DNA of 64,000 nt, from assembly GCA_009845995.1 (NCBI GenBank), contig VXYK01000013.1, positions 2,010-66,009 on the forward strand, in the 5' to 3' direction. The translations under genes were made by a program, and so were the position numbers. Positions 4,679-48,586 of this stretch are shown in pieces. Positions within the stretch are counted from its first letter, which is position 1. Each line of letters begins with the position of its first letter. This DNA is from Acidimicrobiaceae bacterium. GTDB lineage: Bacteria; Actinomycetota; Acidimicrobiia; Acidimicrobiales; Aldehydirespiratoraceae. Under the pieces are notes generated by a model, which did no database searches, had not been told where the DNA came from, and saw only the letters and a list, made by a program, of their open reading frames with translations.

Positions 4679-4690
4679 CGTGATCTCTCA

Positions 4691-4745
4691 TCGGTCTGTT
4701 CGGTATTCGGTCTATTCGGTCTTCGGTCTTCGGTCTACTAGGTCT
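4691..4745. repeat. Seven degenerate tandem copies of TCGGTCT (spacing 9,7,9,7,7,9) between the xylA start and the stop of the upstream oxidoreductase
   Basis: Read directly from the sequence: tcggtct g t tcggtat tcggtct at tcggtct tcggtct tcggtct ac taggtct. On the coding (minus) strand the unit is AGACCGA. Confidence 0.8.
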
Positions 4746-5847: not shown

Positions 5848-5859
5848 CGGCCACCATGC

Positions 5860-6733: not shown

Positions 6734-6742
6734 GTTCTCCTT

Positions 6743-8783: not shown

Positions 8784-8846
8784 CGTATGAGACGAGCGGT
8801 TCCGGGAACGGACACTTGCAACCCCAAACAGGAGGGAATCCACAAA

Positions 8847-9836: not shown

Positions 9837-9887
9837 TCAAAAAGAGCTGACCGAGTTCGCTCGATCAGCTAGCAATTACAGCTAATC

Positions 9888-9930
9888 GGAGTTGGGGTTG
9901 TCAGCCTGAGGGTTGGCAGCCCCAACTTCC
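9888..9930 (+). other. Intercistronic stem-loop between the SBP and permease genes
   Basis: GGAGTTGGGGTTGTCAG-cctgaggg-TTGGCAGCCCCAACTTCC: roughly 17 bp of pairing with one bulge and some G-U pairs. Confidence 0.5.
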
Positions 9931-10046
9931 GACCTCCCACCTCACATTTGAGGCACTCCCTGCTTGGGCGACGCTGGAGCCTTACGGGGTTTGAGAATAG
10001 TGTCCGGCGACATGCGCCCAAACGCTGGCGCACCGAAGGGGGAAAC

Positions 10047-12116
10047 ATGACAGACGTAGCGGCTCATCCCGACGCCGACGACGGTCAGCCCGATGAACGT
10101 CTTGCCTACCGAGGTGTCTTTACTCGGATGCTGGTCAGGCCTGAGATTGGGGCCGTTATCGGTTCCGCTGCCATCTGGCTGTTCTTTTGGGCGGTTTCGG
10201 AACAGTTCGGCACCGCCGGTGGTCTGTCTGGAGTACTCGACGTCTCAGCCACGCTCGGCATCATGGCCGTCGCGGTGGCCTTGTTGATGATCGGCGGAGA
10301 ATTCGACCTTTCCTCGGGTGCCGCCACCGGCGCTCTCGGCATCGTGACCATCTTGTTGGTCAAAGACATCGGCGAACTCGGCGGTGCAGGTTTGAGCCTC
10401 TTCATCGCCATACCTCTGTCGTTCGTGGTCGCAATGGCCCTCGGTTGGTACAACGGCACGGTCGTGGAGCGAACCGGTCTGCCGAGCTTCATTGTCACGC
10501 TGGCGACGTTCTTCGTGTTGCGCGGCTTCAAGCTCGGCTTCTCCAAACTCACGATCGACAACATCTCGGTGGGTCGCATCGACGAAGGCCACGGCTTCGA
10601 CTTCTGGCATCCGATCTTCGCTGGAGTCTGGGTCCGGAATGAACACGTCTGGGACACCCGCGACGTGGTCTACACCATCGGAATCCTGCTCGGTCTCGCT
10701 TTGTTCGTGCTCGCCATCTACGAGGGAAACTACCTGCGCAAGAAAGAAATGAACCCGGCGGGCTTGCTGATGTTCATAGCCGGGGTCGCCGGCACTGTCT
10801 TCGGGGTGGTGCTGATGCACTACACCTCAGGCGTTTCCAACGACATCATCTCAGGGTTGGTGATCGCGGCGTCGATGATCCTCGGGTTCATCGGGGTTGC
10901 CCTGTGGCGCTATGAACCCATCGCCGGTGACAACTCGATCCATCTGGATTCGAGGGTTCTGGAACTCGCCGGCCTCGGGATCGTTGTGATCGTGATCGGC
11001 GTTGTCTGCGCCCTGGTGGTGGACGTGGACGGGCAACAGACCATCCTCGACCGGCTCCCGGTTGTCGTCGAGTGGCTGATAACCGTCGCAACCTTAGCTC
11101 TCACCGGCGCAATAGCTTGGCGTCGCAGTGGAGGCGGGACTTCGGGCTCTGAACAACGGATGGCTCTGTTCCAAGCCGGCCGGGCCGGTCTGGTGGGCGC
11201 TATCTCAATGCTCGCCTTCATGTTCATGACGACCGAACAGGGCCTGCGGGCCATCCTGTTCGTCGGTCTGTCCACCACCGGTCTGATCTTGTTGGCGATG
11301 GCGGCTCTGCGGGCCCGCAAGAGTTCTCCGCTGTCAGGCTCGCTCATCCTGGCCCTCAATTCGCTGGTGATCGCGGCTCTGGCCCTGTTCATTCAAGCTG
11401 AGTCAGGTCACCCGAAGTTCCGCACTGAGATTTTCACCGTAATGATGTTCGGCGCCGCGTTGGTCTTGGCCTGGGCACTGGTGAGCAGCCACTACCAACA
11501 GCGCAAAGCTGCTGACCATGACGCCGACCGCTTGTCCACGCTCCTGTCGGTTGCAGGTCTCGTCGCGGTCCTTGTCGGGTTGATCTCACGTTTGTTGTGG
11601 ACCACAACCACCGAAAACGAGTCAGGCGTCGCTTTCGCCTCCTTCCGCATGAGCATCCTCTGGTTCATCGCTGTGACCGCCGTCGCAACCTTCGTGCTCG
11701 GACGCACCAAGTTCGGCAGCTGGATCTTCGCTGTGGGCGGCAACAAGGAAGCCGCACGCCAAGTGGGTGTGCCGGCAGCCAAGACCAAGACGCAACTGTT
11801 CATGATCGTCTCAGGTGCAGCCTGGTTGGTCGGCCTGTTGCTGGCCTTCCGCTTACAGACGCTTCAGTCCGGCACCGGCAACGGCTTGGAGTTCGAGTAC
11901 ATCATCGCCGCTGTTGTCGGTGGGACCGCGCTGACCGGCGGTTACGGCTCCGTGCTGGGCGCAGCCATCGGTGCCTTCATCATGGCCATGTCGAAACAGG
12001 GAATCGGTTTGGCGCTGTGGAACTCGGACTGGCGTTTCGCATTCCTTGGCGTGATCCTTCTCGGAGCGGTCATGGCCAACAACTTCATCAAGGCCAAAGC
12101 CGAGGCGGTCCGATGA
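10047..12116 (+). CDS. Sugar ABC transporter permease (RbsC/AraH family) with a ~350-aa membrane insertion
   Basis: N-terminal block LGIMAVAVALLMIGGEFDLSSGA ... GLPSFIVTLATFFVLRG. C-terminal block GRTKFGSWIFAVGGNKEAARQVGV ... AAVVGGTALTGGYGSVLGA. Together these match the two halves of a ~330-aa RbsC-type permease but are separated by many extra hydrophobic helices. ATG 10047 has GAAGGGGG upstream. Confidence 0.85.
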   Translation: MTDVAAHPDADDGQPDERLAYRGVFTRMLVRPEIGAVIGSAAIWLFFWAVSEQFGTAGGLSGVLDVSATLGIMAVAVALLMIGGEFDLSSGAATGALGIVTILLVKDIGELGGAGLSLFIAIPLSFVVAMALGWYNGTVVERTGLPSFIVTLATFFVLRGFKLGFSKLTIDNISVGRIDEGHGFDFWHPIFAGVWVRNEHVWDTRDVVYTIGILLGLALFVLAIYEGNYLRKKEMNPAGLLMFIAGVAGTVFGVVLMHYTSGVSNDIISGLVIAASMILGFIGVALWRYEPIAGDNSIHLDSRVLELAGLGIVVIVIGVVCALVVDVDGQQTILDRLPVVVEWLITVATLALTGAIAWRRSGGGTSGSEQRMALFQAGRAGLVGAISMLAFMFMTTEQGLRAILFVGLSTTGLILLAMAALRARKSSPLSGSLILALNSLVIAALALFIQAESGHPKFRTEIFTVMMFGAALVLAWALVSSHYQQRKAADHDADRLSTLLSVAGLVAVLVGLISRLLWTTTTENESGVAFASFRMSILWFIAVTAVATFVLGRTKFGSWIFAVGGNKEAARQVGVPAAKTKTQLFMIVSGAAWLVGLLLAFRLQTLQSGTGNGLEFEYIIAAVVGGTALTGGYGSVLGAAIGAFIMAMSKQGIGLALWNSDWRFAFLGVILLGAVMANNFIKAKAEAVR

Positions 12117-12150
12117 GCAACATTTCAGCTAGTGCAGAGGAGGTAAGCCG

Positions 12151-12939
12151 ATGAGCAACCTCATCGAACTCGACAACGTGGGCAAGTTCTACGGCAACAT
12201 CATCGCCCTGAAAGGAGTCACCACAACCGTGAACGCGGGCGAAGTCACCTGCGTGCTCGGCGACAACGGTGCAGGCAAATCCACCCTGATCAAGATCCTC
12301 TCGGGGGTACACGACCACAGCGAGGGAACCTACGTTTTTGAAGATGAAGAGTGCGCCTTCACCTCGCCCCGCCAAGCCCTTGACCGCGGTATCGCCGCCG
12401 TGTACCAGGACTTGGCGATGGTGCCGCTGATGTCGGTCTGGCGGAACTTCTTTCTCGGTGCCGAACCTACGATCGGTCGTTGGCCGATCCGCTGGGTCAA
12501 CAAGGCCAAGGCCAAGTCGATCGCCAAAGAAGAGATGGCCAAGATGGGCATCGACATCCGCGACACCGAACAACCAGTGGGCACGTTGTCTGGCGGAGAA
12601 CGCCAGTCGGTTGCCATCGCCCGGGCCGTCTATTTCGGCGCCAAGGTGCTGATTCTGGACGAGCCGACCTCCGCGTTGGGCGTCAAGCAGTCCGGAGTGG
12701 TGCTGCGATACATCGTTGAGGCTCGCAACCGAGGGTTGGGAGTGATCTTCATCACCCACAACCCGAGCCATGCCTACCCCGTCGGCGATCGTTTCCTGAT
12801 CCTCAATCGCGGTCACTCGATGGGGAACTTCGCCAAAGAAGACATCAGCCTGTCCGAGTTGACGCAACTCATGGCCGGAGGTGCCGAACTTGAACAACTC
12901 CAACATGAGCTTGAACAAGCAGTGTCGGGTGGCGCCTGA
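12151..12939 (+). CDS. ABC transporter ATP-binding protein (single NBD)
   Basis: Walker [10 protein letters not shown], signature LSGGERQ, Walker B VLILDEPT. Confidence 0.9.
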
Positions 12940-13918
12940 GTCCGCCCGTAGTCTCGAACTGCTCACCGTCGGACGAGTCAGTGTCGATATCTACGCGCAG
13001 CAACTCGGAGTGTCGATGACCGAAGCGACGACATTCCGCAAATCCATTGGTGGTACGTCGACCAATGTGGCGGTCGCAGCATCTCGTCTGGGGCATCACT
13101 GCGCAACAGTCACCCGCGTCGGAGACGACGAGTTCGGCGCGTATGTCCGCCATGCCCTCAAGCACACGTTCGGAGTTGACACACGCTTTGTGGGAACCGA
13201 CCCCGAACTGAAGACGCCGCTCGCTTTCGCTGAACTCAACCCGCCCGAAGATCCCAACATCATCTTTTACCGCGAACCCCGGGCGCCAGATCAGAACCTG
13301 GCGCTCGACGACGTGGACCTTGGTGTGGTACGAGAAGTACCGGTCTTCTGGGTTCCCGCTTCTCGCTTCGCCTGGGAACCGAGCCGCTCCACAGTCACCG
13401 CGATGCTGCGCGAGCGTCAGCGTCGGCCTCACACGGTTCTTGACCTTGACTGGCGGCCGATGTTCTGGGACTCCCCTACGGCGGCGAGCGAACAGATCTC
13501 ACCAATGCTTGACCACTTCAGCATCGCAATCGGCAACCGCGACGAGTGTGAAATCGCGGTCGGAACCCGCGAGCCGGATGAGGCCGCTGATCGCATGCTT
13601 GAACGAGGACTCAGTGCTGCGGTCGTCAAGCTGGGTGCAGATGGCGTAATGGTGGCTCTCGCCGATGGCACCCGCGAAACGATCGCACCGTTTCCAGTCG
13701 AAGTCGTATGCGGCCTCGGATCGGGCGACGCCTTCGGCGGGGCTTTCTGCCACGGGCTGCTCAACGACTGGGATCTGATCAGGACCGTTGAGTACGGAAA
13801 CGCGGCCGGCGCCATCGTCGCCAATCGCCTGATGTGTGCCGATGACATGCCGACGATCGATGAGATCGACGGTTTCCTCGTCTCCCGACTTTCAACGGAA
13901 CAAAGGCAGGCGATATGA
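12881..13918 (+). CDS. iolC: 5-dehydro-2-deoxygluconokinase (PfkB family)
   Basis: [18 protein letters not shown]-terminus and a PfkB GSGDAFGG motif, in iol context. The start is uncertain: GTG 12881, ATG 12905 and GTG 12929 are all in frame. Confidence 0.8.
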
Positions 13919-14925
13919 GCGCGCTGCCCACGATTTATGTCGACCGGACAATGCCCCCCGGTTTCGAAGAAATGTTCACCGACAGAGCCGCACTGATCGG
14001 GCCGGAAGTGTCAGCGCTTGTGAAGGCGCAGGGAGTGATCGCCAGCGGTTCGGTGTGGGACGGGCCGCGCATGGACACCGCTCCAATGCTCCAAGTCATC
14101 TCGCGGGCAGGAATCGGCTTCGACGCCGTGGATCTCGGGGCAGCCACCGAACGCGGAGTCGTTGTCTGCAACGCACCCGCGTCACCCACGGTTTCCACCG
14201 CTGAGCACACGATGGCCCTGCTGTTGCACGTCGCCAAGTCACTCAGCGCCAACCAGCGACGGCTGCGGGGCCATATCGGTGACTACTACGTCGACAACGA
14301 GGGCATCGAACTGGCCGGACGAACCCTCGGAGTGGTCGGTTACGGACCCATCGGCCGAAGGGTCGTCAAAGCGGCGCGCGGTCTCGACATGGAGGTCCTC
14401 GCCCATGATCCGTACCTCGACCCGAACGACGAAGACGTCGAACTGGTCTCGTTCAGCGAGCTTCTGGAACGCAGCGACGCGGTCAGTGCCCACTGTCCGT
14501 TGACCGACGAAACCCACGAGATCTTCAACCGCGACGCATTCGCCAAGATGCGCCGCGGTTCGCTGTTCATCAACGCCGCGCGCGGAGGCGTCGTCGATCA
14601 AGACGCCCTGGTAGAGGCTCTCGATTCGGGGCACATCGCGGGGGCGGGCCTGGACGTGACCGTGCCCGAACCGCTCCCTATCGATCACCCCCTGCAGGGA
14701 CGCGACAACGTGATAATCACCCCGCACATTGCTTCAGCAACCGACCTCGGCCGTCGCCGGATGTACCACGCGGCGCTCGAAAACGCGATGACATGCCTCA
14801 ACGGCAACCGCGTCACAACATGCGTCAACCCGGAGGTCTACGACCAGCCCGAGTTGCGCTTCAACAAGGCTCAATCACCAGTCTGCGGTACCGTCCGCAG
14901 CGACAACAAAGCGCAAAAGATATGA
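13915..14925 (+). CDS. D-isomer-specific 2-hydroxyacid dehydrogenase family protein
   Basis: NAD-binding GVVGYGPIGRRV, the catalytic-region motifs INAARGGVVD and ITPHIASAT, and an ATGA overlap with the next gene. Confidence 0.85.
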   Translation: MSALPTIYVDRTMPPGFEEMFTDRAALIGPEVSALVKAQGVIASGSVWDGPRMDTAPMLQVISRAGIGFDAVDLGAATERGVVVCNAPASPTVSTAEHTMALLLHVAKSLSANQRRLRGHIGDYYVDNEGIELAGRTLGVVGYGPIGRRVVKAARGLDMEVLAHDPYLDPNDEDVELVSFSELLERSDAVSAHCPLTDETHEIFNRDAFAKMRRGSLFINAARGGVVDQDALVEALDSGHIAGAGLDVTVPEPLPIDHPLQGRDNVIITPHIASATDLGRRRMYHAALENAMTCLNGNRVTTCVNPEVYDQPELRFNKAQSPVCGTVRSDNKAQKI

Positions 14926-16097
14926 CCCGCACCTCAATCGGTATTGGCGTTATCGGTTTTGGCTGGATGGGTCAGGCTCACTCCCGCTCTGCGAAACGGA
15001 TCCCTTCGCTGTTTCCAGAGCGGGAGTTTGACCCTCGCCTGGTCATCTGTTGCGACAATGTTCATGAGCGACGAACTGAGGCGCTTGAGAGCTTCGGGTT
15101 CGACCGTGTCGCCGCGGATTGGCAGAGCGTTGTTTCAGATCCCGAGGTTGACGTGGTCTATGTCACCGCACCGAACATGCTGCACGAACCCTTGGCGATC
15201 GCAGCAGCCGAAAACAACAAGCACGTCTTCTGTGAGAAACCGGTAGGGGGCACTCCTGAGCAAACTGTGCGAATCGACACCGCCGCGACTGCTGCCGGAG
15301 TCATAACCGGCGTTGGCTACAACTACCGTTGGGCGCCGCTGGTACAGCACGCCAAAGCGCTCATCGACTCAGGGACGCTCGGCCAGATCACCAACTATCG
15401 TGGACGCTTCTTCTCGATGTACGGCAGCGACCGGCTCGGCACACTGTCATGGCGTTACCTGATCGACCAGGCCGGGTACGGGGTGTCCTCAGACATCATG
15501 AGCCACGCTGTCGACCTGGCACACATGCTCGTGGGTCCCATAACCACAGTCATGGGGACCATGGAGACGTTCATAAAACAGCGGCCTCTTCCCGCAGCCA
15601 ACGGCACTCACTACGACCAGGGCAAACCAGGCGACCCAACCGGCGAGGTGACCAACGAGGACTACGCGGCAGCCATGGTCGTCTTCGAGAACGGTGCCCG
15701 CGGCACATTCGAATCGTCTCGCTCAATCGTCGGACCTGAGAGTCAAATGGCCTTCGACGTGTACGGCACCAAGGGCGCTCTGCGCTGGAACCTCGAGACG
15801 ATGAACGAACTCGAGGTCTTCATCGTCGACGACGAAGGCACAGCTCCACGCGGTTACACCAAGGTCTATTCCGGAGACCGCTACCCGTATCACGGACATT
15901 TTGTGCCCGGAGACGCCAACGGCATCGGCTATGAAGACCTCAAGGTCATCGAGAACTACGAATTCTTGAGTGCAGTAGCCAGAGGTGAGCAGCATCAGCC
16001 CGGTTTCGCCAATGCCGTCGACTACGTGAGCTTTCAGGATGCCTGGTTGCGCTCGTGCGAAACCGGCACCTGGACCAAGGTGGAGCGCTTGTCGTGA
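14922..16097 (+). CDS. Gfo/Idh/MocA family oxidoreductase
   Basis: Start ATG 14922 overlaps the previous stop. IGIGVIGFGWMGQAHS Rossmann signature and CEKP motif. The track ORF from 14793 is an N-terminal over-extension. Confidence 0.85.
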   Translation: MTRTSIGIGVIGFGWMGQAHSRSAKRIPSLFPEREFDPRLVICCDNVHERRTEALESFGFDRVAADWQSVVSDPEVDVVYVTAPNMLHEPLAIAAAENNKHVFCEKPVGGTPEQTVRIDTAATAAGVITGVGYNYRWAPLVQHAKALIDSGTLGQITNYRGRFFSMYGSDRLGTLSWRYLIDQAGYGVSSDIMSHAVDLAHMLVGPITTVMGTMETFIKQRPLPAANGTHYDQGKPGDPTGEVTNEDYAAAMVVFENGARGTFESSRSIVGPESQMAFDVYGTKGALRWNLETMNELEVFIVDDEGTAPRGYTKVYSGDRYPYHGHFVPGDANGIGYEDLKVIENYEFLSAVARGEQHQPGFANAVDYVSFQDAWLRSCETGTWTKVERLS

Positions 16098-16140: not shown

Positions 16141-18006
16141 ATGAGAACAGTTCGACTCACCACGACCCAAGCCATCGTGAAATACTTGATGGCACAGAAG
16201 ATCATCATCGGTGACGAACCGAAACCGATATTCCCCGGCATGTTCGCCATCTTCGGGCACGGCAACGTCACCTGCCTGGGTACCGCCCTTGAAGAAGTCA
16301 AAGAGGACTTTCCCACCTGGAGAGGACAGAACGAACAGGGAATGGCACTGGCCGCGACTGCTTACGCCAAGGCCTCCAAACGTCGCCAAATCATGGTTGC
16401 AACTTCGTCTGTGGGTCCCGGCGCAACCAACATGGTGACAGCCGCGGCAGTCGCCATGGCCAACCGCATGCCTCTGCTCCTGCTTGCCGGCGACACCTTC
16501 CAGAGCCGTATCCCCGACCCGGTGCTTCAGCAGGTGGAGCAGTTCGGTGATCCGTCGACCACCGTCAACGACTCCTTCCGCCCGGTCGTGCGTTACTGGG
16601 ATCGCATCACACACCCGGCCCAGGTGGTGCACTCGCTGCCCCACGCCCTGCACACAATGCTCGATCCGGGAGACTGCGGGCCGGCGTTCATCGGGCTGCC
16701 ACAGGACATCGCCGCTGACGCCTACGACTACCCGGTGCGCTGCTTCGACGAGACGATCCACGAAATCCGCCGACCCCGACCCGACCGCTCCGAGTTGGCT
16801 CGCGCCACCGCGCTATTGAGCCAAGCCGAAAAGCCGCTGATCATCAGCGGTGGCGGTGTTCATTGGTCCGAGGCGGAAGCCGCACTCGCCGATTTCGTCG
16901 ACGCTCACAACGTTCCGGTGGTGGAAACAGTGGCGGGGCGAACCTGTCTTCCCCAATCCCATCGATTGCACGCGGGGACCATCGGCGTCACCGGATGCAC
17001 CTCAGCTAACGCGCTTGCCGCACAGGCCGATGTAGTGGTTGCGGTAGGCACTCGGCTGGGGGACTTCGCCACTGGCTCCTGGACCGTGTTCGCCAACGAA
17101 GCGGTCAAGATCATCGGCATCAACACGGCCCGCTTCGATGCCACCAAACACCTGGCGGTGCCGCTCGTCGCCGACGCCCGCGAGGCCCTGACCGAGCTGT
17201 CAGCCGCGCTCGGGAACTACCGATCCGCTGAGTCTTGGTCCGCCACCTGCGCCTCCGAAGCCGCCCAATACCACGCCTACATCGACAAGCTGGCAGCACC
17301 TGACGTTCCCTCGTCGCCGGTCGAATCACAGACGCTACCCACCTACGCGCAGGTGGTCGGCGTCGTCGATCGCGCAGCGGACGAACGCACCTATGCGCTC
17401 ACCGCCGCCGGCGGATTTCCCGGCGAGCTCGTCAACGGCTGGCGCTCTAACACCGTGCATTCATTCGACGCCGAATACGGCTATTCATGCATGGGCTACG
17501 AGATCTCGGGGGGCTGGGGGGCGAAGATGGCACTGCCGGACCGCGATGTCGTGGTCTTCGTTGGTGACGGCTCCTACATGATGATGAACAGCGACCTGTA
17601 CAGCTCTGTGCTATCGGGCCACAAGCTCATTGTCATCGTCTGCGACAACGGCGGATTCGCCGTGATCAACCGGCTTCAAACCAACCAGGGCGGCGTTCCG
17701 TTCAACAACCTCATCGCCGATTCCAAGATCGCGGAGGAGGTACGCGTCGATTTCGCGGCCCACGCCGCGGCCATGGGTGCCGAATCTGAGACCGTCTCCA
17801 CGGTCGCCGAACTGACCGAGGCTTTCGAACGGGCCCGAGCTGCCGACCGAAGCTACGTGATCGCGTTGCAGACTTCGGCCTACGACTGGACCGAAGGCGG
17901 TGCCTGGTGGGAAGTCGGAGTGCCGGAAGTCTCGAACCGTCAAGCAATCCGGGACGCCAGAGCTGAACTTGACGAAGGCAAAGCTGCACAGAGAGTGGGC
18001 TGGTGA
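16141..18006 (+). CDS. iolD: 3D-(3,5/4)-trihydroxycyclohexane-1,2-dione acylhydrolase (ThDP-dependent)
   Basis: MRTVRLTTTQAIVKYL N-terminus like IolD. ThDP motif GDGSYMMMNSDL. ~620 aa. GGAG upstream of ATG 16141. Confidence 0.9.
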   Translation: MRTVRLTTTQAIVKYLMAQKIIIGDEPKPIFPGMFAIFGHGNVTCLGTALEEVKEDFPTWRGQNEQGMALAATAYAKASKRRQIMVATSSVGPGATNMVTAAAVAMANRMPLLLLAGDTFQSRIPDPVLQQVEQFGDPSTTVNDSFRPVVRYWDRITHPAQVVHSLPHALHTMLDPGDCGPAFIGLPQDIAADAYDYPVRCFDETIHEIRRPRPDRSELARATALLSQAEKPLIISGGGVHWSEAEAALADFVDAHNVPVVETVAGRTCLPQSHRLHAGTIGVTGCTSANALAAQADVVVAVGTRLGDFATGSWTVFANEAVKIIGINTARFDATKHLAVPLVADAREALTELSAALGNYRSAESWSATCASEAAQYHAYIDKLAAPDVPSSPVESQTLPTYAQVVGVVDRAADERTYALTAAGGFPGELVNGWRSNTVHSFDAEYGYSCMGYEISGGWGAKMALPDRDVVVFVGDGSYMMMNSDLYSSVLSGHKLIVIVCDNGGFAVINRLQTNQGGVPFNNLIADSKIAEEVRVDFAAHAAAMGAESETVSTVAELTEAFERARAADRSYVIALQTSAYDWTEGGAWWEVGVPEVSNRQAIRDARAELDEGKAAQRVGW

Positions 18007-18818
18007 TGGCGCAGCGTTTCGCTGGGAAGGTTGCGCTGGTCACGGGTTCAACTCAAGGGGTCGGAGCCGCCTTGTCGGAGCTGATGGCCGACGAGGGACT
18101 CGCCGGCGCAGTGGTCACTGGTCGCAACGCAGAACGGGGATCGGCCGTGCAGGCAGCGCTCGAAGCCAAGGGTTGCCCAGCCATTTTCGTGTCTGCGGAC
18201 CTGGCGGACGCGGAGCAGGTCGATGCGCTCATCAGGGCTGCCGACAAACGCTTCGGGCGAATCGACCATTTGGCCAACTGCGGTGCGCTTACTGACCGCG
18301 GCAACCTTTGGGACACCAGCGTCGAGTTGTTCGACTCGATGATGGCGGTCAACGCACGCGCGCCGTTCCAACTGATTCAGGGAGTAGCCCGGATTGCCAG
18401 ACGCAACGGTACGGCAGCATCGGTAGTCAACGTCGGCAGCACATCAGGCCACGGCGGTCAGCCTTTCATCACCGCCTATTGCATCTCCAAGGGCGCCTTG
18501 ATGACCATGACCAAGAACCTGGCTTACCAGCTGATGCGGCACGGTATTCGGGTGGTCACGGTCAACCCGGGTTGGATGGACACGCCCGGCGAAGACGCGA
18601 CCCAACGCAAACACCACGGTGCCACCGACGGCTGGCTCGAAGCTGCTTCGGCAACGAGACCCTGGGGACGGTTGGTGTCGATCAACGAGCTCGTCAACAC
18701 CATGGCCTTTGTGCTCAGCGACGAGGCCGGGTTGATGAGCGGAACCATCATCGACCTCGACCAATCCGTGCAGGGAGCGGGAGACCCGCCGGTACCCCCC
18801 GCCGAGCTCGGCCCATGA
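18003..18818 (+). CDS. SDR family oxidoreductase
   Basis: TGSTQGVG cofactor motif and a YxxxK catalytic motif (YCISK). ATGA overlap with iolD. Confidence 0.85.
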   Translation: MMAQRFAGKVALVTGSTQGVGAALSELMADEGLAGAVVTGRNAERGSAVQAALEAKGCPAIFVSADLADAEQVDALIRAADKRFGRIDHLANCGALTDRGNLWDTSVELFDSMMAVNARAPFQLIQGVARIARRNGTAASVVNVGSTSGHGGQPFITAYCISKGALMTMTKNLAYQLMRHGIRVVTVNPGWMDTPGEDATQRKHHGATDGWLEAASATRPWGRLVSINELVNTMAFVLSDEAGLMSGTIIDLDQSVQGAGDPPVPPAELGP

Positions 18819-18864
18819 TCGCATTCTTCACGACGCACGCGAAGCCCCGGATCCGGGACCGGCG

Positions 18865-20337
18865 ATGACCGCCGTATTACGCGACTACAGCCTGGCTGGT
18901 CCCGAAAACCAGCGAGCCTGCGAGAAAGGACTCGCCAGCGCTCCATGGTGGACACCGCCCATCGACGAGGATCGGCTCACCGAGCTGATGGCGCGAAGCA
19001 ATGCTCGTGCCGCACGCGACACCGCGCTGTGGCTCGGCGGGATTGTCGCCTTGGCGGTCGTGATCGTGCTCAGCTGGTTCTCTTGGTATTCGCTGCCGCT
19101 GCTGTTCGTGTACGGAGCCCTCTACGGCGGAGCTGCTGACTCTCGTTGGCACGAATGCGGCCATGGGACTGCCTTCCGTTCCACGGTCGCCAACAACGTC
19201 ATCTACTACATTGCTTCGTTCATGCTCTGGCGCGAACCGACCATGTGGCGCTGGTCGCACTACCGCCATCACAGCGACACCATCATCGTGGGACGGGACG
19301 CTGAGATCATCTTTCCGCGCCCACCCAACGTGCGTTCACTCCCGCTCACGTTCTCCCATGTCGTCAACGGTCCCAAGATGCTGTGGCGCTTGCTTCAACA
19401 CGCAGCGGGTCGCATTGATCCCGACGCCGCCGATTTCATTCCGGTTTCCGAACATCGAAGGTTGATTCTCGAGGACCGGATATTCGCGGTGATTCTCGCC
19501 GCGGCCGTCGCTGGGTCACTCATCTTGTGGCACCCGTTGCCCGTGCTGTTGGTCGGGCTACCAACGATCTATGGTGCCTGGTTGGTCGTGTTTTTCGGGA
19601 TCACCCAACATGCCGGTCTGCAAGAAGATGTGCTCGATCATCGCCTGAATACCCGCACGGTTTACATGAACCCGCTGTTCAGGTTTCTTTACTCGAACAT
19701 GAACTATCACATTGAGCATCACCTCTTCCCGGGTGTGCCTTACCACGCGCTGCCCGCGCTTCACGAGGAGCTGAAGGACTCACTGCCACCGGCTCTGCCC
19801 AACACCCGGGCCGCTTACCGGGAATTGCTCGGGGCGATGCGCCGGCAATCAAAGGACGCCACCTGGGAGGTACCCGATCGGGGTATTCCCGATGTCCCGA
19901 ATGCCGGGCTGAGCCTGGTCGATCACGGCCCGATTGTTCCCGACGAACAGCAGACGGCCACAGCGTCCGCCGGCTCCGGCCCTGCCGATCTCGGAGCGGT
20001 GAACGAGATCGCGGTGGGGAGGGCGCGCCGCTGCGATATCGGCGAACGAACCTACGCTCTGTATCGGCTCAACGAGTCCGAGGTTGCAGTCAGCGACGGG
20101 CTGTGCACCCACGCTGCCGCGCATCTGGCCGAGGGTTTGATCCTTGACGGGGCAATCGAGTGTCCCAAGCACAACGGCCGGTTTGATCTGCGTACCGGCG
20201 AACCGTTGCGCAGACCAGCCAAAGACCCGCTGAATATCTATCCCTGCGAGGTTGTGGGAGGGCGGATAGTGGCGGACCTGTCCACCGCCGAGGCACCAAG
20301 CACCCAGAGTGCGAGCGACAATAAGGAGACGTCGTGA
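18865..20337 (+). CDS. Membrane di-iron oxygenase (fatty acid desaturase family) fused to a C-terminal Rieske [2Fe-2S] domain (MocD/MocE-like)
   Basis: His boxes HECGH, HYRHH and HIEHH, plus hydrophobic segments. The C-terminus carries CTH-x16-CPKH. The stop overlaps the iolG GTG (GTGA). Confidence 0.8.
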   Translation: MTAVLRDYSLAGPENQRACEKGLASAPWWTPPIDEDRLTELMARSNARAARDTALWLGGIVALAVVIVLSWFSWYSLPLLFVYGALYGGAADSRWHECGHGTAFRSTVANNVIYYIASFMLWREPTMWRWSHYRHHSDTIIVGRDAEIIFPRPPNVRSLPLTFSHVVNGPKMLWRLLQHAAGRIDPDAADFIPVSEHRRLILEDRIFAVILAAAVAGSLILWHPLPVLLVGLPTIYGAWLVVFFGITQHAGLQEDVLDHRLNTRTVYMNPLFRFLYSNMNYHIEHHLFPGVPYHALPALHEELKDSLPPALPNTRAAYRELLGAMRRQSKDATWEVPDRGIPDVPNAGLSLVDHGPIVPDEQQTATASAGSGPADLGAVNEIAVGRARRCDIGERTYALYRLNESEVAVSDGLCTHAAAHLAEGLILDGAIECPKHNGRFDLRTGEPLRRPAKDPLNIYPCEVVGGRIVADLSTAEAPSTQSASDNKETS

Positions 20338-21347
20338 ACGATGTGCGAGTCGGAGTATTGGGTGTCGGCCGGATAGGTCGGATGCACGCGGAGTTGATCC
20401 AACGCCGTGCCGATGGCGCCTCACTGGTCGCGGTGTACGACGTGTTCAGCGAAAGCGCACAGAGTGTCGCTGCAGAGTTCGGCGCTCGCGTGGCCGCGTC
20501 ACCCGACGAGTTGATCAACGCAACCGATGTCGACGCGGTAGCAGTGTGCACACCCACCGACACCCACATCGACTTTTTGGTCGCTGCGGCGCAGGCAGGC
20601 AAACCGGCCTTCATCGAGAAGCCTCTCTCGCTGGATCTTTCTGAAGTTGATCGTGGTATCGCTGCCGCCGAAGCCACTGGAATCGCTGTGCAAATCGGTT
20701 TCAACCGCCGTTTCGATCCGAGCCACAAGTCGGTGCGGGACACCGTGGCCAACGGTGAGATCGGCGACGTGCAGATGGTGCGGATCACCAGCCGTGACCC
20801 CGCTCCCCCGCCTCTCTCCTATCTCGACGGATCGGGTGGGATCTTCCTGGACATGACCATCCACGACTTCGACATGGCCCGTTATGTGACCGGCAGCGAA
20901 GTGGTCGAGGTGTACGCCACGGGTGCGGTGATGGTTGATCCCGCCATCGGTGAGGCGGGGGATCTCGACACGGTGGTTGTGGTCATGACCCACGAAAACG
21001 GTGCGATAACCACCATCGACAACAGCCGTCAGGCCGTATACGGCTACGACCAGAGGGTCGAGGCGTTCGGTTCTGCCGGGATCGTGGCCTCGGACAATCC
21101 CGGCGTGACCACCACCACGAGACGGACCGCCGCAGGTTCGGCGGGTTCAACCATCCCGTATTTCTTCTTGGACCGCTACATACCCTCGTATCTGGCCGAA
21201 TGGACGGATTTTGTGGCGATGGTCCGCAACGGTGCGCCCTCGCCGGTCACTTTGCACGATGGACGGGCCCCGCTCGTGATCGGGCTGGCCGCCTGGCGTT
21301 CGTTTCACGAGGGTCGCCCGGTCAAGACCAAGGAGATCACACCATGA
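20334..21347 (+). CDS. iolG: Inositol 2-dehydrogenase (Gfo/Idh/MocA family)
   Basis: VRVGVLGVGRIGRMH Rossmann signature and an EKP motif. 337 aa. Sits between the oxygenase and iolB. Confidence 0.8.
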   Translation: MNDVRVGVLGVGRIGRMHAELIQRRADGASLVAVYDVFSESAQSVAAEFGARVAASPDELINATDVDAVAVCTPTDTHIDFLVAAAQAGKPAFIEKPLSLDLSEVDRGIAAAEATGIAVQIGFNRRFDPSHKSVRDTVANGEIGDVQMVRITSRDPAPPPLSYLDGSGGIFLDMTIHDFDMARYVTGSEVVEVYATGAVMVDPAIGEAGDLDTVVVVMTHENGAITTIDNSRQAVYGYDQRVEAFGSAGIVASDNPGVTTTTRRTAAGSAGSTIPYFFLDRYIPSYLAEWTDFVAMVRNGAPSPVTLHDGRAPLVIGLAAWRSFHEGRPVKTKEITP

Positions 21348-22213
21348 CCGCTGATTCCGCAGCGCCCGTTTCCGGGGCCAACGCGTCAGGGCCCATTCGA
21401 CCCGGCGTCGGCCCGGGCCGGATCCTGGAAATCACCCCTGAGGTCGCGAACTGGACTTACCTGAGCTTCTCAGTTCTTGAACTGAGCGCGGACACTACTT
21501 TCACCGAGACCGCCGAAGACAGAGAAACCGCGATCGTGCCTCTGAGCGGATCGGGTCAAGTTCGTGCTGGTGGCGAAGTCTTCGATCTGGCCCGCTCTTC
21601 AGTTTTTGCGCAGAAACCCCACATTGTCTATTTGCCGCCCGGTGTCGAGTTCGCCATCGCCACCAGCGGTTCGTTCACTTGCGCCGTGGGATCTGCGCCT
21701 GCGGAGGGGAAGCTGCCGTTGCGGTTGATCCGGCCAGATGAGATGCGCAGCGAGATTCGCGGTGGAGGCGCAGCTCATCGTCAGGTGGTCCACGCGCTGG
21801 CGTCACCGTTGCCCGCCGAACGACTGATCCTCTATGAGGTGTACGTGCCGAGGGGAACCTGGTCGGGCTGGCCGCCCCACTGTCATGACGGGCGCGACGG
21901 ATCTCCATACCTCGAGGAGGTCTACTACTTCCGGCTCGACCGACCCGAAGGTTATGCACAGCATCGGAATTGGCGTTCCGACGAAGGTTTCGACGAGACC
22001 GTGGTGATCAACGACGGAGATGTGGCCCTAGTGCCGAAGGGTTACCACACCTCGGTGGCGTGCCCCGGATCGAACATGTACTTCCTCAACTACCTGGCCG
22101 GTGAACTCGAAGGCAGCGAACGCGCCACTCCCCCGTGCTTTGCCGCCGAGCACACTTGGATCGAGAGCGACTGGACGGCGGGTGAGTGGGGTCTCCCCGT
22201 CGTCACCTCGTGA
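21344..22213 (+). CDS. iolB: 5-deoxy-glucuronate isomerase (cupin)
   Basis: ATG 21344 overlaps the iolG stop. Cupin region PPHCHDGRDGSPYLEEVYYFR is like IolB. Confidence 0.8.
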   Translation: MTADSAAPVSGANASGPIRPGVGPGRILEITPEVANWTYLSFSVLELSADTTFTETAEDRETAIVPLSGSGQVRAGGEVFDLARSSVFAQKPHIVYLPPGVEFAIATSGSFTCAVGSAPAEGKLPLRLIRPDEMRSEIRGGGAAHRQVVHALASPLPAERLILYEVYVPRGTWSGWPPHCHDGRDGSPYLEEVYYFRLDRPEGYAQHRNWRSDEGFDETVVINDGDVALVPKGYHTSVACPGSNMYFLNYLAGELEGSERATPPCFAAEHTWIESDWTAGEWGLPVVTS

Positions 22214-22237: not shown

Positions 22238-23095
22238 ATGAGCCTCGACGGCATTTCGCAAAACGGCCGGTTCTGCGTGTTGGCGATCGACCATCGTGAT
22301 TCATTGCGCAAGTTCTTGTCGCCCGCTGATCTCGATGCTGTTTCTGCAGATCAGCTCACCACCCTGAAAACAGATATCGTGCGCGAGCTTGCACCGATGG
22401 CCACCGGTGTGATGCTCGAACCCGAGTATTCGATCCCGCAGGTTTTAGACGCCGGAGCTCTGCCTGCAGGCATCGGTTTCGTAGCCGCTCTTGAGTCACA
22501 GGGCTACCTCGGTGAGTTGGGTTCTGCGCCCACGACTGTGCTCGATGGCTGGTCCGTCGAGGCTGCCGCGGCCAGTGGCGCGGCTGCCACCAAGCTGTTG
22601 TTGCCGTACCATCCCGACCGTGCTCTGGCCGCCGACCAGCGAGCGGTTGCCGCAGAGGTGATCGCCGAGTGCCGCCGACTCGGAATCCCGCTGGTCCTTG
22701 AACCGTTGTTTTACGATCTCGACAGTCCCAGCGACAGGCGCCGTGTCGTCATCGAAACCGCCCGCCAGTTCGCAGCAGCCGACCCTCATCTGCTGAAGCT
22801 GCCGTTCCCTGTCGATCCAACCCTTGAGCCTGACCGCAGAGTTTGGCTCGACGCCTGCGAGGAGATGAACGCGCTGATTTCCATGCCTTGGACATTGCTG
22901 TCCGGCGGCGGTGACTTCGAGTCGTTCTTCGCGCAGGTCGAGATTGCGCTCGAGGCCGGTGCGGCGGGCTGCATGGTCGGCCGCGCCCTCTGGGGCGAAG
23001 CAGCCCGCGCCTCCAGTACCGACCGCCCCTCGATCCTCACCAATCTCATTGCCCCCCGCCTCTTCCGCCTCCATTCCCTGATCTGCGACAGGTAG
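22238..23095 (+). CDS. Class I aldolase of the LacD/DeoC-like family; candidate 5-dehydro-2-deoxyphosphogluconate aldolase
   Basis: N-terminus NGRFCVLAIDHRDSLRKFL resembles tagatose-bisphosphate/sulfofructose-phosphate aldolase family members. Last gene of the iol operon. Confidence 0.65.
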   Translation: MSLDGISQNGRFCVLAIDHRDSLRKFLSPADLDAVSADQLTTLKTDIVRELAPMATGVMLEPEYSIPQVLDAGALPAGIGFVAALESQGYLGELGSAPTTVLDGWSVEAAAASGAAATKLLLPYHPDRALAADQRAVAAEVIAECRRLGIPLVLEPLFYDLDSPSDRRRVVIETARQFAAADPHLLKLPFPVDPTLEPDRRVWLDACEEMNALISMPWTLLSGGGDFESFFAQVEIALEAGAAGCMVGRALWGEAARASSTDRPSILTNLIAPRLFRLHSLICDR

Positions 23096-30493: not shown

Positions 30494-31791
<1,298 letters not shown>

Positions 31792-31795
<4 letters not shown>

Positions 31796-48560: not shown

Positions 48561-48586
48561 ATCGACTCTCGGGGTTGTCCAACAAG

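Follow-up and report, generated by a model that had tools for sequence, protein, structure and literature searches.

Catabolism of rhizopine (3-O-methyl-scyllo-inosamine) in Rhizobium leguminosarum and Sinorhizobium meliloti involves the products of mocD, mocE and mocF, which were proposed to act as a ferredoxin oxygenase complex channelling rhizopine to inositol degradation (model of Bahar et al. 1998, relayed in PMC10107442 and PMC5789663). Scyllo-inosamine, a compound without a methyl group, is reported to induce the mocD promoter 93-fold. For more than 25 years, the literature has referred to the MocD family as 'rhizopine demethylase', yet to our knowledge no member has been assayed biochemically, and the demethylase role is a model dating from 1998. 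As a reference we used the moc locus on pRLa11 of R. leguminosarum A1, which encodes, in this order, an iolE-like protein, a Gfo dehydrogenase, a binding protein, MocR, a desaturase, a Rieske protein and a FAD reductase. Its regulator passed the MocR equivalog NF052281 (751 bits, cut-off 650). The Rieske protein passed TIGR02377 (178 vs 136), and because both curated models were passed, the locus was accepted as a genuine moc locus. Right after mocDEF, it carries a homologue of PanB-like hydroxymethyltransferases and purU.

Here we describe a gene from a sponge-associated actinobacterium of the class Acidimicrobiia that combines the two families of MocD and MocE, in the same order, in a single polypeptide. 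It lies in a stretch of 64,000 nucleotides, called the window below. The gene (18865–20337, + strand) begins with ATG and encodes 490 aa. This start is considered correct because the N-terminus (MT..RDYSLxGP) aligned with the homologues and with MocD from residue 1. Pfam identified FA_desaturase (PF00487) at aa 73–311 (E 7.8e-36, 124.6 bits vs a cut-off of 29.7) and Rieske at aa 377–460 (E 1.6e-13, 50.8 bits vs 20.3), so that the two domains which an earlier note on this DNA had expected in one chain were both found there above the cut-offs. The AF2 model of the protein had a mean pLDDT of 87.3 and a pTM of 0.76. The same note had suspected a high-GC Gram-positive host, which agrees with the relatives in the Acidimicrobiia and with the window GC content of 61%.

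The membrane di-iron FA_desaturase catalytic domain (aa 73–311; 19081–19797, + strand, as are all features of this gene) was recognized by Pfam, hydrophobic stretches and AF2 helices. Two hydrophobic hairpins at aa 49–83 and 200–247, visible in both the sequence and the AF2 model, flank the His boxes, and helices were modelled at residues 46–69, 76–99, 194–221 and 238–249. In an alignment of 100 homologues, the invariant residues were H96, E97 and H100 of His box 1 (HECGH, aa 96–100; 19150–19164), H132, R134, H135 and H136 of His box 2 (HYRHH, aa 132–136; 19258–19272), and H282, E284, H285 and H286 of His box 3 (HIEHH, aa 282–286; 19708–19722). Q248-H249 (19606–19611), which follow the second membrane hairpin, were also invariant and may supply a further iron ligand; they belong to the TQHAG motif, the most conserved peptide, which was chosen as the query for a genome scan. 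The inter-domain linker (aa ~337–376; 19873–19992) was variable in alignments and had AF2 pLDDT values below 50 for aa 357–370. Its counterpart in the split system is the C-terminal tail of MocD plus the N-terminus of MocE, and MocD (361 aa) and MocE (105 aa) together approximate the length of the fusion. The Rieske [2Fe-2S] ferredoxin domain (aa 377–470; 19993–20274), supported by Pfam, NCBIfam, Foldseek and invariant ligands, has its cluster ligands C414/H416 (nt 20104–20112) and C433/H436 (nt 20161–20172) in the motifs CTH (414–416) and CPKH (433–436), with 16 residues separating H416 from C433. All His and Cys residues of the His boxes and Rieske motifs were invariant in the 100-homologue alignment, and every motif that had been read from this single ORF was located in the translation.

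Both halves resembled proteins of the moc locus. Residues 1–330 aligned with pRLa11 MocD from residue 1 and free of gaps, with 158/330 (48%) identity (E 9e-107) that included the 45 N-terminal residues specific to the family, and residues 389–473 shared 46% identity with MocE over 85 aa (E 2e-25). The domain order is collinear with the mocD-mocE gene order, and the fusion and rhizopine MocDE share the N-terminal extension, the His boxes and the Rieske ligands. No curated MocD model exists for comparison, and likeness to MocD was judged against the pRLa11 protein. For the Rieske domain, the best NCBIfam match was MocE_fam_FeS (TIGR02377; 88.0 bits, model positions 9–100), which is below the curated cut-off of 136.15, whereas genuine MocE proteins reached 178 and 185 bits. 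Foldseek matched this domain to the ferredoxins of carbazole, naphthalene and biphenyl dioxygenases (target TM-scores of 0.83–0.93, rmsd ~1 Å); such ferredoxin components carry electrons from a FAD reductase to the oxygenase. By comparison, models for lipid desaturases, carotenoid hydroxylases and GntB gave only E-values of 1e-7 to 1e-9 (~1e-8 for lipid desaturases), far under their cut-offs, and the curated lipid desaturase, carotene hydroxylase and DesA/DesB models scored 22–32 bits vs cut-offs of 475–500. The assignment of the N-terminal domain to the MocD type rather than to lipid desaturases, and of the Rieske part to the MocE-like proteins, thus held.

Approximately 8000 database proteins matched at E ≤ 1e-5, and the best 120 of these all contained both domains. 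The fused architecture is far beyond chance. In Acidimicrobiia the fusion is the usual form and is represented by thousands of sequences, many from sponge symbionts, which the databases label 'fatty acid desaturase'. The fusion that the earlier note had regarded as unusual is therefore real, but it is not rare, being the norm in this class.

The fusion gene sits in the middle of an inositol operon on the + strand. The first gene of the operon encodes an iolE-like TIM-barrel dehydratase (7887–8783), which was below the TIGR04379 cut-off (171 vs 290 bits) and 29% identical to MocC/IolE of the moc locus. It is followed by an ABC importer recognized by Pfam (8787–12939), consisting of a binding protein (8787–9836), a permease with two BPD_transp_2 stretches (9948–12116) and an ATPase (12151–12939). 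The only NCBIfam match of the binding protein was 'rhizopine catabolism ABC transporter SBP' (183 bits vs a cut-off of 420), and its best PDB match was 4ru1 (E 8e-54). Next are iolC for 5-dehydro-2-deoxygluconokinase (12881–13918; TIGR04382, 346 bits vs 300; the true start is possibly ATG 12905), a D-2-hydroxyacid dehydrogenase family gene (13915–14925; Pfam 2-Hacid_dh_C), a second Gfo/Idh/MocA dehydrogenase gene (14922–16097), iolD (16141–18006; TIGR04377, 834 bits vs 715) and, directly upstream of the fusion gene, a short-chain dehydrogenase gene (18006–18818; Pfam adh_short; NF004847 subfamily, 342 bits vs 240). The second Gfo/Idh/MocA protein resembled scyllo-inositol and levoglucosan dehydrogenases (LevoglcsnDh model, 309 bits vs a cut-off of 650), with PDB matches to 6a3f (E 3e-75) and the scyllo-inositol dehydrogenase 5ya8 (E 1e-53). 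Downstream are iolG for inositol 2-dehydrogenase (20334–21347; TIGR04380 equivalog, 412 bits vs 355), iolB for 5-deoxy-glucuronate isomerase (21344–22213; TIGR04378, 237 bits vs 205) and a gene of the DeoC/LacD aldolase family (22238–23095; Pfam DeoC; tagatose-bisphosphate aldolase-like, below cut-off), which is likely the 2-deoxy-5-keto-gluconate-6-phosphate aldolase of the pathway. A LacI-family gene (6743–7771, − strand; Pfam LacI and Peripla_BP_3) is divergently oriented and likely encodes the repressor of the operon.

The iolG, iolB, iolC and iolD genes passed curated equivalogs. They run in the same direction as the fusion gene (+ strand), and their frames overlap or nearly touch. Four-base ATGA overlaps were found between iolC and the hydroxyacid dehydrogenase gene, between the latter and the second Gfo/Idh/MocA gene, and between iolG and iolB, while iolD and the short-chain dehydrogenase gene share one base (TGATG). 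At the junction of the fusion gene and iolG (20322–20337, + strand), an AAGGAG Shine-Dalgarno sequence (20322–20327) sits 6 nt upstream of the GTG of iolG (20334–20336), which overlaps the stop of the oxygenase gene (TGA, 20335–20337) as GTGA. The iolG start is called at 20334 by ENA and 9 nt later, at 20343, by NCBI, and the gap is ≤5 nt either way. The stop/start overlap that had placed the oxygenase within the inositol operon was thus seen. No aldehyde dehydrogenase gene (as expected for iolA, malonate-semialdehyde dehydrogenase) was found among the window ORFs scanned, and genes for aminotransferases or ammonia metabolism were absent from the operon. In the window, xylA and xylB, both of which passed equivalogs, belong to the divergent operon.

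Both the rhizopine locus and the window operon contain an iolE-like TIM barrel, a Gfo/Idh/MocA dehydrogenase and a CUT2 binding protein. The earlier note had called these neighbours MocA-, MocB- and MocC-like, which stands at the superfamily level, but they are only 26–30% identical to the moc-locus proteins and match canonical iol genes; iolG, a binding protein of the inositol type and a dehydratase resembling iolE are the better reading. The two systems differ in further respects. The rhizopine oxygenase consists of two polypeptides and is encoded with the MocF reductase, while the window protein is a single chain with no MocF-type neighbour. The rhizopine regulator is MocR, of which no homologue was found in the window or the 80 related loci, and that of the window is of the LacI type. 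The PanB-like and purU neighbours of the rhizopine locus are absent from the window operon, and the hosts are rhizobia in one case and marine or sponge Acidimicrobiia in the other.

To examine the conservation of the inositol linkage, we surveyed the synteny of 80 homologue loci, all from the class Acidimicrobiia, of which 61 had adequate flanking sequence. At least three of six core iol genes were present at 52 of the 61 well-flanked loci, in agreement with the link to inositol genes claimed earlier, while six had none and showed heterogeneous contexts. The iolG gene was directly downstream of the fusion gene in 57/80 loci, with the frames overlapping or nearly touching, and the DeoC/LacD-family gene followed iolB in 57 loci. 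The second Gfo/Idh/MocA gene (62/80 loci) was among the genes that most often accompanied the fusion; the hydroxyacid dehydrogenase gene was present in 51/80, and the short-chain dehydrogenase gene was the upstream neighbour in 31/80 and absent from many. The iol synteny was kept down to 53% protein identity, with accessory genes varying. Because all 80 loci came from one class, part of this synteny reflects shared descent instead of independent association. In some Ilumatobacteraceae loci, the fusion gene was found with xylA/xylB and no core iol gene.

The redox partner is not encoded locally. A tblastn search with two MocF queries gave no match at E ≤ 1e-3 in the window and no MocF-type reductase at any of the 80 loci, FNR-type reductase modules were absent as well, and Pfam showed no reductase among the large window ORFs scanned, consistent with the earlier reading of the window. 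Neither the window nor the surroundings of the 80 homologues contained genes for formaldehyde or C1 handling.

Split relatives are also found outside rhizopine loci. Clusters resembling mocDEF in S. meliloti (pSymB 'mocD'), R. leguminosarum, Burkholderia, Acidiphilium and Pseudomonas syringae PG3 encode proteins with 44–51% identity to the fusion. Like the window, they have an adjoining LacI-family regulator gene (seen beside the split genes of Rhizobium, Sinorhizobium, Burkholderia and Acidiphilium) and TIM-barrel and Gfo/Idh/MocA neighbours, but they consist of separate genes, usually include mocF (not in Burkholderia YI23) and lie outside a complete iol operon. The PanB-like gene of the genuine moc locus follows two of these clusters (L001 and L002), and it also stands beside a fusion gene with 60% identity in an Actinomycetota MAG.

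A third architecture, new here, is FA_desaturase–Rieske–FNR/NqrF-like reductase. Proteins of this type, of ~760 aa, are common among the Verrucomicrobiota, Acidobacteriota and Planctomycetota. These three-domain relatives have 47% identity over residues 5–476, with the first two domains in the same order, and the top ferredoxin model for the Rieske domain was again MocE_fam_FeS, just under the cut-off (126 bits vs 136). Unlike the fusion, they carry their own NAD(P)H reductase module and should be self-sufficient, which would show that the family is driven by NAD(P)H through the Rieske domain. Their contexts contain sugar-uptake and polysaccharide genes, not iol genes. One lies within a cluster of AraC, RhaM, RhaT, the oxygenase gene and an aldose epimerase with a fucosidase nearby, and another is flanked by a gene of the URO-D family and, in the opposite direction, by a sugar transporter gene with DUF1638, RACo and AraC genes behind it, a neighbourhood of the corrinoid-methyltransferase type.

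Comparable series of architectures are known for AlkB, which belongs to the same histidine-ligated membrane di-iron superfamily. A natural AlkB–rubredoxin fusion from Fontimonas thermophila has a cryo-EM structure (PMC10113152), and a review described a three-domain ferredoxin–reductase–AlkB and found no ferredoxin-fused desaturase as of its writing (PMC8918992). AlkB thus occurs, as does the MocD family, in split, carrier-fused and carrier-plus-reductase-fused forms, and is likewise prone to database mis-naming. However, the carrier in AlkB fusions is a rubredoxin or a plant-type ferredoxin and not a Rieske [2Fe-2S] domain, the substrate is an alkane where the context of the fusion points to a polar carbohydrate, and the window protein had no detectable sequence match to any solved AlkB. 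In marine Bacteroidota, a P450 (CYP236A-type) with a ferredoxin and a ferredoxin reductase O-demethylates 6-O-methyl-D-galactose (PMC6292453, PMC9400963). If the window protein is a demethylase, the logic would be the same, namely an O2-dependent, ferredoxin-fed enzyme that frees a methyl-blocked carbohydrate and releases formaldehyde. The P450 is nevertheless a soluble haem-thiolate enzyme of unrelated fold with proven activity, while the fusion is a predicted membrane di-iron enzyme that would act by demethylation.

Taken together, we propose that the fusion is a MocD-type membrane non-haem di-iron monooxygenase with a MocE-type Rieske domain that demethylates an O-methyl-inositol for the iol pathway, a reading to which we assign a probability of roughly 55%. 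A substituted cyclitol would enter through the ABC importer of the operon. An NAD(P)H-dependent flavoprotein reductase, presumably encoded elsewhere in the genome, would reduce the Rieske cluster, which would hand single electrons to a di-iron centre held by the three His boxes at the cytoplasmic face of the four-helix membrane domain. The reduced centre could then activate O2 and hydroxylate a C–H bond of the cyclitol. The most likely target would be the methyl of an O-methyl-inositol, giving a hemiacetal that breaks down to formaldehyde and free inositol, and iolG, translated right after the oxygenase, would oxidise the freed inositol into the iolE-D-B-C-aldolase pathway. Among the possible functions, removal of the O-methyl group from a methylated cyclitol has the best support, although it is inferred here as it is for MocD itself. 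The PanB-like and purU genes and the corrinoid-methyltransferase-type neighbours can be seen as hints for methyl removal. No methylated cyclitol is known to us to be plentiful as a substrate where these bacteria live, in sponges or in the sea.

The same type of enzyme in the same operon role could instead oxidise another modified cyclitol, for example by hydroxylating a deoxy-inositol (quercitol/viburnitol type) to inositol, by acting on a C-methyl-inositol (laminitol/mytilitol type), or by oxidative deamination of an inosamine to an inosose via a carbinolamine. The position between the iolD/short-chain dehydrogenase genes and iolG indicates cyclitols and not which substituent they bear, and this alternative also fits the induction of the mocD promoter by methyl-free scyllo-inosamine, the Acidimicrobiia loci devoid of C1-handling genes, and the polar-substrate hydroxylase GntB (acting on L-arginine) as the nearest functionally defined NCBIfam relative, a weak match at E 2e-9. 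We consider it unlikely, as the methyl-related neighbours in rhizobia and beside a three-domain relative indicate methyl groups and the operon lacks aminotransferase and ammonia-related genes. It is quite improbable that the enzyme acts on a methylated sugar (such as an O-methylated pentose or deoxyhexose of algal or plant polysaccharides) and that the iol link reflects a shared transporter and regulator in a mixed carbohydrate island, given that iolG and the iol core accompany the fusion gene at most loci and that the substrate of the genuine moc system is an inositol derivative. Sugar genes are nonetheless frequent around the family: xylA/xylB in the divergent operon of the window and directly after the cluster in Ilumatobacteraceae, an SBP-ABC-Gfo-oxygenase-xylA-xylB arrangement with no core iol gene at two loci (L031 and L053), the rhamnose-type genes, aldose epimerase and sugar transporters adjoining three-domain relatives, and mocDEF beside a second xylA in P. 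syringae from woody hosts (PMC5132102); sugar O-demethylation by an oxygenase, a ferredoxin and a reductase is moreover established for the P450 acting on 6-O-methyl-galactose (PMC6292453).

The database name and the PF00487 membership would suit a lipid desaturase or hydroxylase of the ordinary membrane type, or a carotenoid or alkane oxygenase, that is in the operon by accident, as nearly all characterized members of this superfamily use lipophilic substrates. The minimal scores of the curated lipid models, the 48% identity to MocD including its specific N-terminus, the iol synteny down to 53% identity and the stop/start overlaps throughout the operon make such an accident highly implausible. 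Similarly, the lack of a local reductase in the window and at all 80 loci might suggest a protein that is inactive or decaying for want of a partner, but none of the metal ligands varies among 100 homologues, the gene has an unbroken reading frame and its AF2 model reaches a pLDDT of 87. In Burkholderia, too, mocD-mocE lacks a mocF companion, bacterial oxygenases usually have their redox partners encoded at other sites, and the two P450 genes in the window are likewise partnerless, so that loss of activity is scarcely to be expected.

Beyond this locus, and more tentatively than the O-methyl-inositol reading itself, MocD-type enzymes might form a large unrecognised oxygenase family that frees cyclitols and polar carbohydrates of methyl ethers or of comparable blocking groups, as a non-haem counterpart of the P450 sugar demethylases in split, ferredoxin-fused and self-sufficient forms. 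The two-domain form of sponge and marine Acidimicrobiia might then be the standard gate into inositol catabolism for a cyclitol, methylated or modified in another way, from the host or algae; from its place in the middle of the inositol operon, the fusion probably sets which cyclitol these abundant bacteria eat. The substrates known for other membrane di-iron enzymes are lipophilic, and a clade acting on polar cyclitols or sugars would, if true, broaden the known scope of this fold. Rhizopine signalling circuits are being engineered for crops, which makes the true activity of MocDE-type enzymes practically relevant. The three-domain relatives should need only NAD(P)H and O2, making the chemistry of the family directly testable for the first time. 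The top whole-protein match in this group was nqrF, NCBI names its members 'NADH:ubiquinone reductase subunit F', and the label 'Na+-NQR subunit F' for such proteins misleads metabolic reconstructions.

Sequence comparison establishes that the fusion joins in one chain a membrane di-iron oxygenase of the MocD type and its own MocE-like Rieske ferredoxin. Its ORF (18865–20337, + strand) opens at an ATG and specifies a 490-residue protein, in which Pfam recognized FA_desaturase at residues 73–311 (E 7.8e-36) and Rieske [2Fe-2S] at residues 377–460 (E 1.6e-13). The motifs named in the earlier note were all found, with HECGH at residues 96–100, HYRHH at 132–136, HIEHH at 282–286, CTH at 414–416, and CPKH at 433–436. 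In an alignment of 100 homologues, all candidate metal ligands were invariant, as were Q248-H249 and the polar residues D258, H259, R260, R264, R273, N278, and N280. Hydrophobic hairpins at about residues 49–83 and 200–247 bracket His boxes 1 and 2, which is the layout of the whole desaturase superfamily. The AlphaFold2 model from the 100-sequence alignment had a mean pLDDT of 87.3 and a pTM of 0.76, with disorder only at residues 357–370 and in the C-terminal tail. In Foldseek, the C-terminal domain matched the ferredoxins of carbazole, naphthalene, toluene, and biphenyl dioxygenases (target TM-score 0.83–0.93, rmsd ~1 Å). Such ferredoxin components shuttle electrons from FAD reductases to oxygenases, the role that we propose for the Rieske domain. 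No solved structure close to the catalytic domain was found; the sequence search of structures matched Rieske ferredoxins only. The best non-Rieske matches in Foldseek were chains of the algal Ycf2-FtsHi complex (TM-score 0.53–0.57, 14% identity), which were uninformative.

In plasmid tblastn searches, the whole fusion aligned in order with pairs of neighbouring genes from Rhizobium, Sinorhizobium, Burkholderia, and others. The pairs are annotated as 'fatty acid desaturase' and 'MocE family 2Fe-2S ferredoxin', with an FAD-dependent oxidoreductase as the usual next gene. A rhizopine locus was identified on the Rhizobium leguminosarum A1 plasmid pRLa11 (L084), with the gene order iolE-like, Gfo, SBP, PLP-type regulator, desaturase, Rieske, and FAD reductase. 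Its regulator passed the curated MocR equivalog (751 vs 650) and its Rieske protein passed the MocE subfamily model (178 vs 136). The proposed likeness to MocD and MocE held against this locus: residues 1–330 of the fusion were 48% identical to pRLa11 MocD without gaps (E 9e-107), and residues 389–473 were 46% identical to pRLa11 MocE (E 2e-25). MocD (361 aa) and MocE (105 aa) together sum roughly to the length of the fusion, whose inter-domain 'linker' corresponds to the MocD tail plus the MocE N-terminus. The Rieske domain is MocE-like, yet at 88 bits it falls outside the curated MocE subfamily (cut-off 136).

Databases name the fusion proteins 'fatty acid desaturase'. Curated models for GntB, lipid desaturases, and carotene hydroxylases gave 22–37 bits on the fusion against cut-offs of 380–500, and identity as a lipid desaturase, carotenoid enzyme, or alkane oxygenase was rejected. 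Given these weak scores beside the similarity to MocD, the N-terminal domain is of the MocD type and not a lipid desaturase.

The genes around the fusion resemble the moc locus less closely. The neighbours described earlier as MocA-, MocB-, and MocC-like were 26–30% identical to the genuine moc proteins (BLASTP), so these parallels are generic and were dropped as specific evidence. The binding protein of the operon scored 183 bits on the 'rhizopine SBP' model, far under the cut-off of 420; a second binding protein of the moc locus (SBP2, L084 16493–17506) scored 138 bits, and MocB itself gave no match to this model. A Sinorhizobium meliloti LMB1 locus was rejected as a moc locus, being by ORF layout only a pSymB-type cluster. 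Two apparent single-piece rhizobial tblastn matches were inspected individually. In R. leguminosarum pRL23b5 (L001), mocD and mocE proved to be separate genes that share a reading frame, with 21 nt between them, and in Ensifer sp. PDNC004 the ORF list gave two ORFs of 363 and 105 aa. In one Acidimicrobiia MAG, a ChbG/HpnK-family deacetylase gene lies ~2 kb downstream of the fusion (L068 13441–14193), and its product is 51% identical to one within the rhizobial moc locus (L084 4001–4894).

The fusion is not the oddity that the earlier note took it for. A protein search yielded ~8000 candidates at E ≤ 1e-5, and the best 120 of these had both domains throughout and lengths of roughly 420–545 residues, with Acidimicrobiales, Ilumatobacteraceae, and Candidatus Poriferisocius among the named sources. 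A genome scan gave 589 relatives, of which the best 80 all came from Acidimicrobiia MAGs, many of sponge origin; the closest of these 80 (84–89%) were labelled Candidatus Aldehydirespiratoraceae or Acidimicrobiaceae. The window sequence recurs unchanged in contig VXQR01000029.1 of assembly GCA_009838925.1 (NCBI) and in metagenome scaffolds. In Acidimicrobiia the fusion is thus the ordinary form and not a curiosity of one genome. We found no paper describing a desaturase-Rieske fusion or giving one a function, and a review notes that a ferredoxin-fused desaturase had yet to be reported (PMC8918992). The MocD/MocE kind itself is already known, and a carrier fusion by itself would not astonish a specialist; what is new is that it is fused, lies within a canonical iol operon, and occurs in Actinomycetota.

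A further architecture emerged when 1.84 billion cluster representatives were scanned in full with HMMER, which gave 6933 matches at E ≤ 1e-3 and 272 at E ≤ 1e-30. Among the best matches was a 760-residue protein with Pfam FA_desaturase, Rieske, and NAD_binding_1 domains, whose C-terminal 275 residues passed the nqrF model and whose Rieske part scored 126 bits on the MocE model. Searching with this protein recovered more than 120 clusters of 755–806 residues with the same three domains, from Limisphaerales/Verrucomicrobiae, Candidatus Sulfotelmatobacter, Acidobacteriaceae, and Thermoguttaceae; such proteins occur commonly in Verrucomicrobiota, Acidobacteriota, and Planctomycetota, under the NCBI name 'NADH:ubiquinone reductase (Na+-transporting) subunit F'. 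Genes of this type lie at L088 192–2474, L089 8001–10292, L090 8001–10268, L092 8001–10277, and L093 7001–9283. One context was AraC-RhaM-RhaT-[gene]-aldose epimerase, followed by Gfo/Idh/MocA and TIM barrel genes near an alpha-L-fucosidase. Another held an amino-acid permease, a beta-helix/GH120 gene, a sugar transporter, and an alginate-lyase-like gene, and in a third (URO-D-[gene]-sugar transporter-DUF1638-RACo-AraC) the gene stood beside a corrinoid methyl-transfer system. Three further contexts were uninformative, and where informative the contexts were carbohydrate-related. In a rough neighbour-joining tree, the split, two-domain, and three-domain forms were interleaved, which suggests repeated fusion in several events. 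The same series of split, carrier-fused, and carrier-plus-reductase-fused forms exists for AlkB, which occurs with separate partners, fused to rubredoxin, and fused to ferredoxin and reductase, the last also mis-annotated (PMC8918992). The three-domain protein should be a self-sufficient form under an NqrF label and makes the old MocD question directly testable.

The fusion sits in one tightly packed operon on the + strand. The operon begins with an iolE-like TIM barrel gene (7887–8783; 171 bits, below the iolE cut-off of 290), a CUT2 ABC importer (8787–12939; Pfam), iolC (to 13918; 346 vs cut-off 300), a D-2-hydroxyacid dehydrogenase gene (2HADH, 13915–14925; Pfam), and a second Gfo/Idh/MocA dehydrogenase gene (14922–16097), whose product is like levoglucosan and scyllo-inositol dehydrogenases. 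It continues with iolD (16141–18006; 834 vs 715), a short-chain dehydrogenase gene (SDR, 18006–18818; Pfam, NF004847), the fusion, iolG (20334–21347; 412 vs 355), iolB (21344–22213; 237 vs 205), and a DeoC-family aldolase gene (22238–23095; Pfam), while a LacI-family regulator gene (6743–7771) is divergent from the operon. Four-base ATGA overlaps join iolC/2HADH, 2HADH/Gfo, and iolG/iolB, and iolD and the SDR gene share a single base (TGATG). The GTGA overlap noted between the fusion and iolG is present, the stop TGA at 20335–20337 overlapping a GTG at 20334. Public calls of the iolG start differ, ENA placing it at 20334 (overlapping) and NCBI 9 nt later at 20343; an AAGGAG at 20322–20327, 6 nt 5' of the GTG, favours the start at 20334 and hence the overlap, and the two genes nearly touch under either call. 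By these assignments the canonical inositol pathway appears essentially complete even without the fusion, which is the sole operon gene without an assigned step. The 46-nt gap before the fusion, the only sizeable one in that part of the operon, contains a 12-nt perfect palindrome, CCCGGATCCGGG (18846–18857), 8 nt 5' of the ATG, and no clear Shine-Dalgarno sequence was seen in it. The ABC permease ORF (9948–12116, +; 722 aa) matches BPD_transp_2 at two separate places, and a rhizobial permease of 366 aa aligns to it twice; either a tandem fusion of permeases or a pair of genes read as a single ORF may explain this.

To survey the neighbourhood, window proteins were used as tblastn queries against the 80 best loci, all of which belong to one class (Acidimicrobiia). 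iolG directly followed the fusion in 57 of the 80, and the upstream neighbour was a short-chain dehydrogenase in 31 and iolD in 27. Flanks of 5 kb or more on each side were available at 61 loci; three or more of the six core iol genes were present in 52 of these, and none in six. The identification in the earlier note thus withstands both of the tests set there to refute it, similarity to MocD and linkage of homologues to inositol genes, and the fusion is a conserved member of the Acidimicrobiia inositol operon. SDR and 2HADH genes were present or absent among loci, xylA/xylB were appended in Ilumatobacteraceae, and protein identity to the fusion fell to 53%, which argues that the fusion is kept in the iol cluster not just by recent common descent. 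Four loci without iol genes (L041, L049, L059, and L082) had unrelated neighbours (hydrolases, a 2OG oxygenase, FG-GAP, ABC permeases) and no common partner or reductase. Two Ilumatobacteraceae loci (L031 and L053) had the layout SBP-ABC-Gfo-[fusion]-xylA-xylB and lacked the core iol genes altogether, which keeps a sugar substrate in play.

In the window, true xylA (3347–4678) and xylB (1881–3362) genes belong to the divergent operon behind the LacI regulator (1881–6783, − strand), together with a PhyH-family dioxygenase gene (5860–6783) and a third Gfo/Idh/MocA gene (4744–5847); in the Ilumatobacteraceae loci, xylA/xylB come directly after the iol/fusion cluster. In Pseudomonas syringae from woody hosts, mocDEF is reported to lie beside a second xylA (PMC5132102).

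The reported lack of a visible reductase was confirmed. Two rhizobial MocF queries found no homologue by tblastn in the window (E ≤ 1e-3) or in the 80 loci, the FNR-like modules of three three-domain relatives had no local match, and Pfam detected no flavoprotein reductase among the large window ORFs. Burkholderia sp. YI23 likewise has mocD-mocE without mocF. With none in the window or the 80 loci, the reductase partner must be encoded elsewhere in the genome. From family knowledge, electrons from NAD(P)H would pass through this trans-acting flavoprotein to the Rieske cluster and on to a di-iron site on the cytoplasmic face, where the favoured reaction would be O-demethylation of a methyl-inositol, a substrate suggested by the gene context. 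Two cytochrome P450 genes in the window (56317–57786, +; 60187–61386, −) have no adjoining ferredoxin or reductase gene, and their products, like the fusion, must rely on redox partners from elsewhere.

The enzyme very probably acts on a cyclitol or sugar substrate for the operon; that its reaction is O-demethylation has nearly an even chance. We give the combined statement a probability of 0.55. A pathway that begins with a dehydrogenase is most obviously blocked by a methyl ether, which favours O-demethylation. So do the one-carbon genes that accompany mocDEF in rhizobia: in three of three rhizobial loci (L084 and the pSymB-type clusters L001 and L002), a PanB-like gene comes after mocDEF, and the genuine moc locus has purU as well. 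The genes concerned lie at L084 11747–13483, L001 11682–12497, L002 11863–12663, and L014 668–1444 (−). The PanB-like protein was rejected as a true PanB (123 bits vs cut-off 272), and together with purU it may represent one-carbon handling tied to the oxygenase. A copy 60% identical adjoins a two-domain fusion in an Actinomycetota MAG, which points the same way, as do the corrinoid methyltransferase neighbours of the three-domain relative. The 1998 MocDEF model, as cited in later papers, proposes demethylation and likewise favours it (Bahar et al. 1998, in PMC10107442 and PMC5789663). Marine Bacteroidota face the same problem with the methyl group of 6-O-methyl-galactose, which a P450 handles (PMC6292453).

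Against O-demethylation, we count that methyl-free scyllo-inosamine induces the mocD promoter and that no C1 genes were found in the Acidimicrobiia loci. We also count against it that, to our knowledge, no MocD-family member has been assayed. Among published bacterial demethylases of pinitol or methyl-inositols, none was found to involve the MocD-type family, and in an enterobacterium demethylation was judged unnecessary for pinitol use (PMC9788770). The family-wide picture would be one of polar substrates for a 'lipid' fold in three architectures.

A myo-inositol-1-phosphate synthase gene (30494–31795, +) lies 7 kb downstream of the catabolic operon, and the organism appears to synthesize inositol as well as break it down. 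An ORF of 723 aa (46530–48701, −) has a MerR-type HTH at its N-terminus together with a chorismate-binding domain like that of isochorismate synthase and would be an unusual regulator-enzyme fusion if its start is real. It heads a menaquinone-type row of MenD-like (44732–46540), hydrolase (43889–44719), and MenC-like (42810–43892) genes. Two adjacent genes at 48880–55609 (+), encoding 1115 and 1163 aa with PD-(D/E)XK nuclease and UvrD-helicase domains, are by domain content an AddAB/AdnAB-type helicase-nuclease pair.
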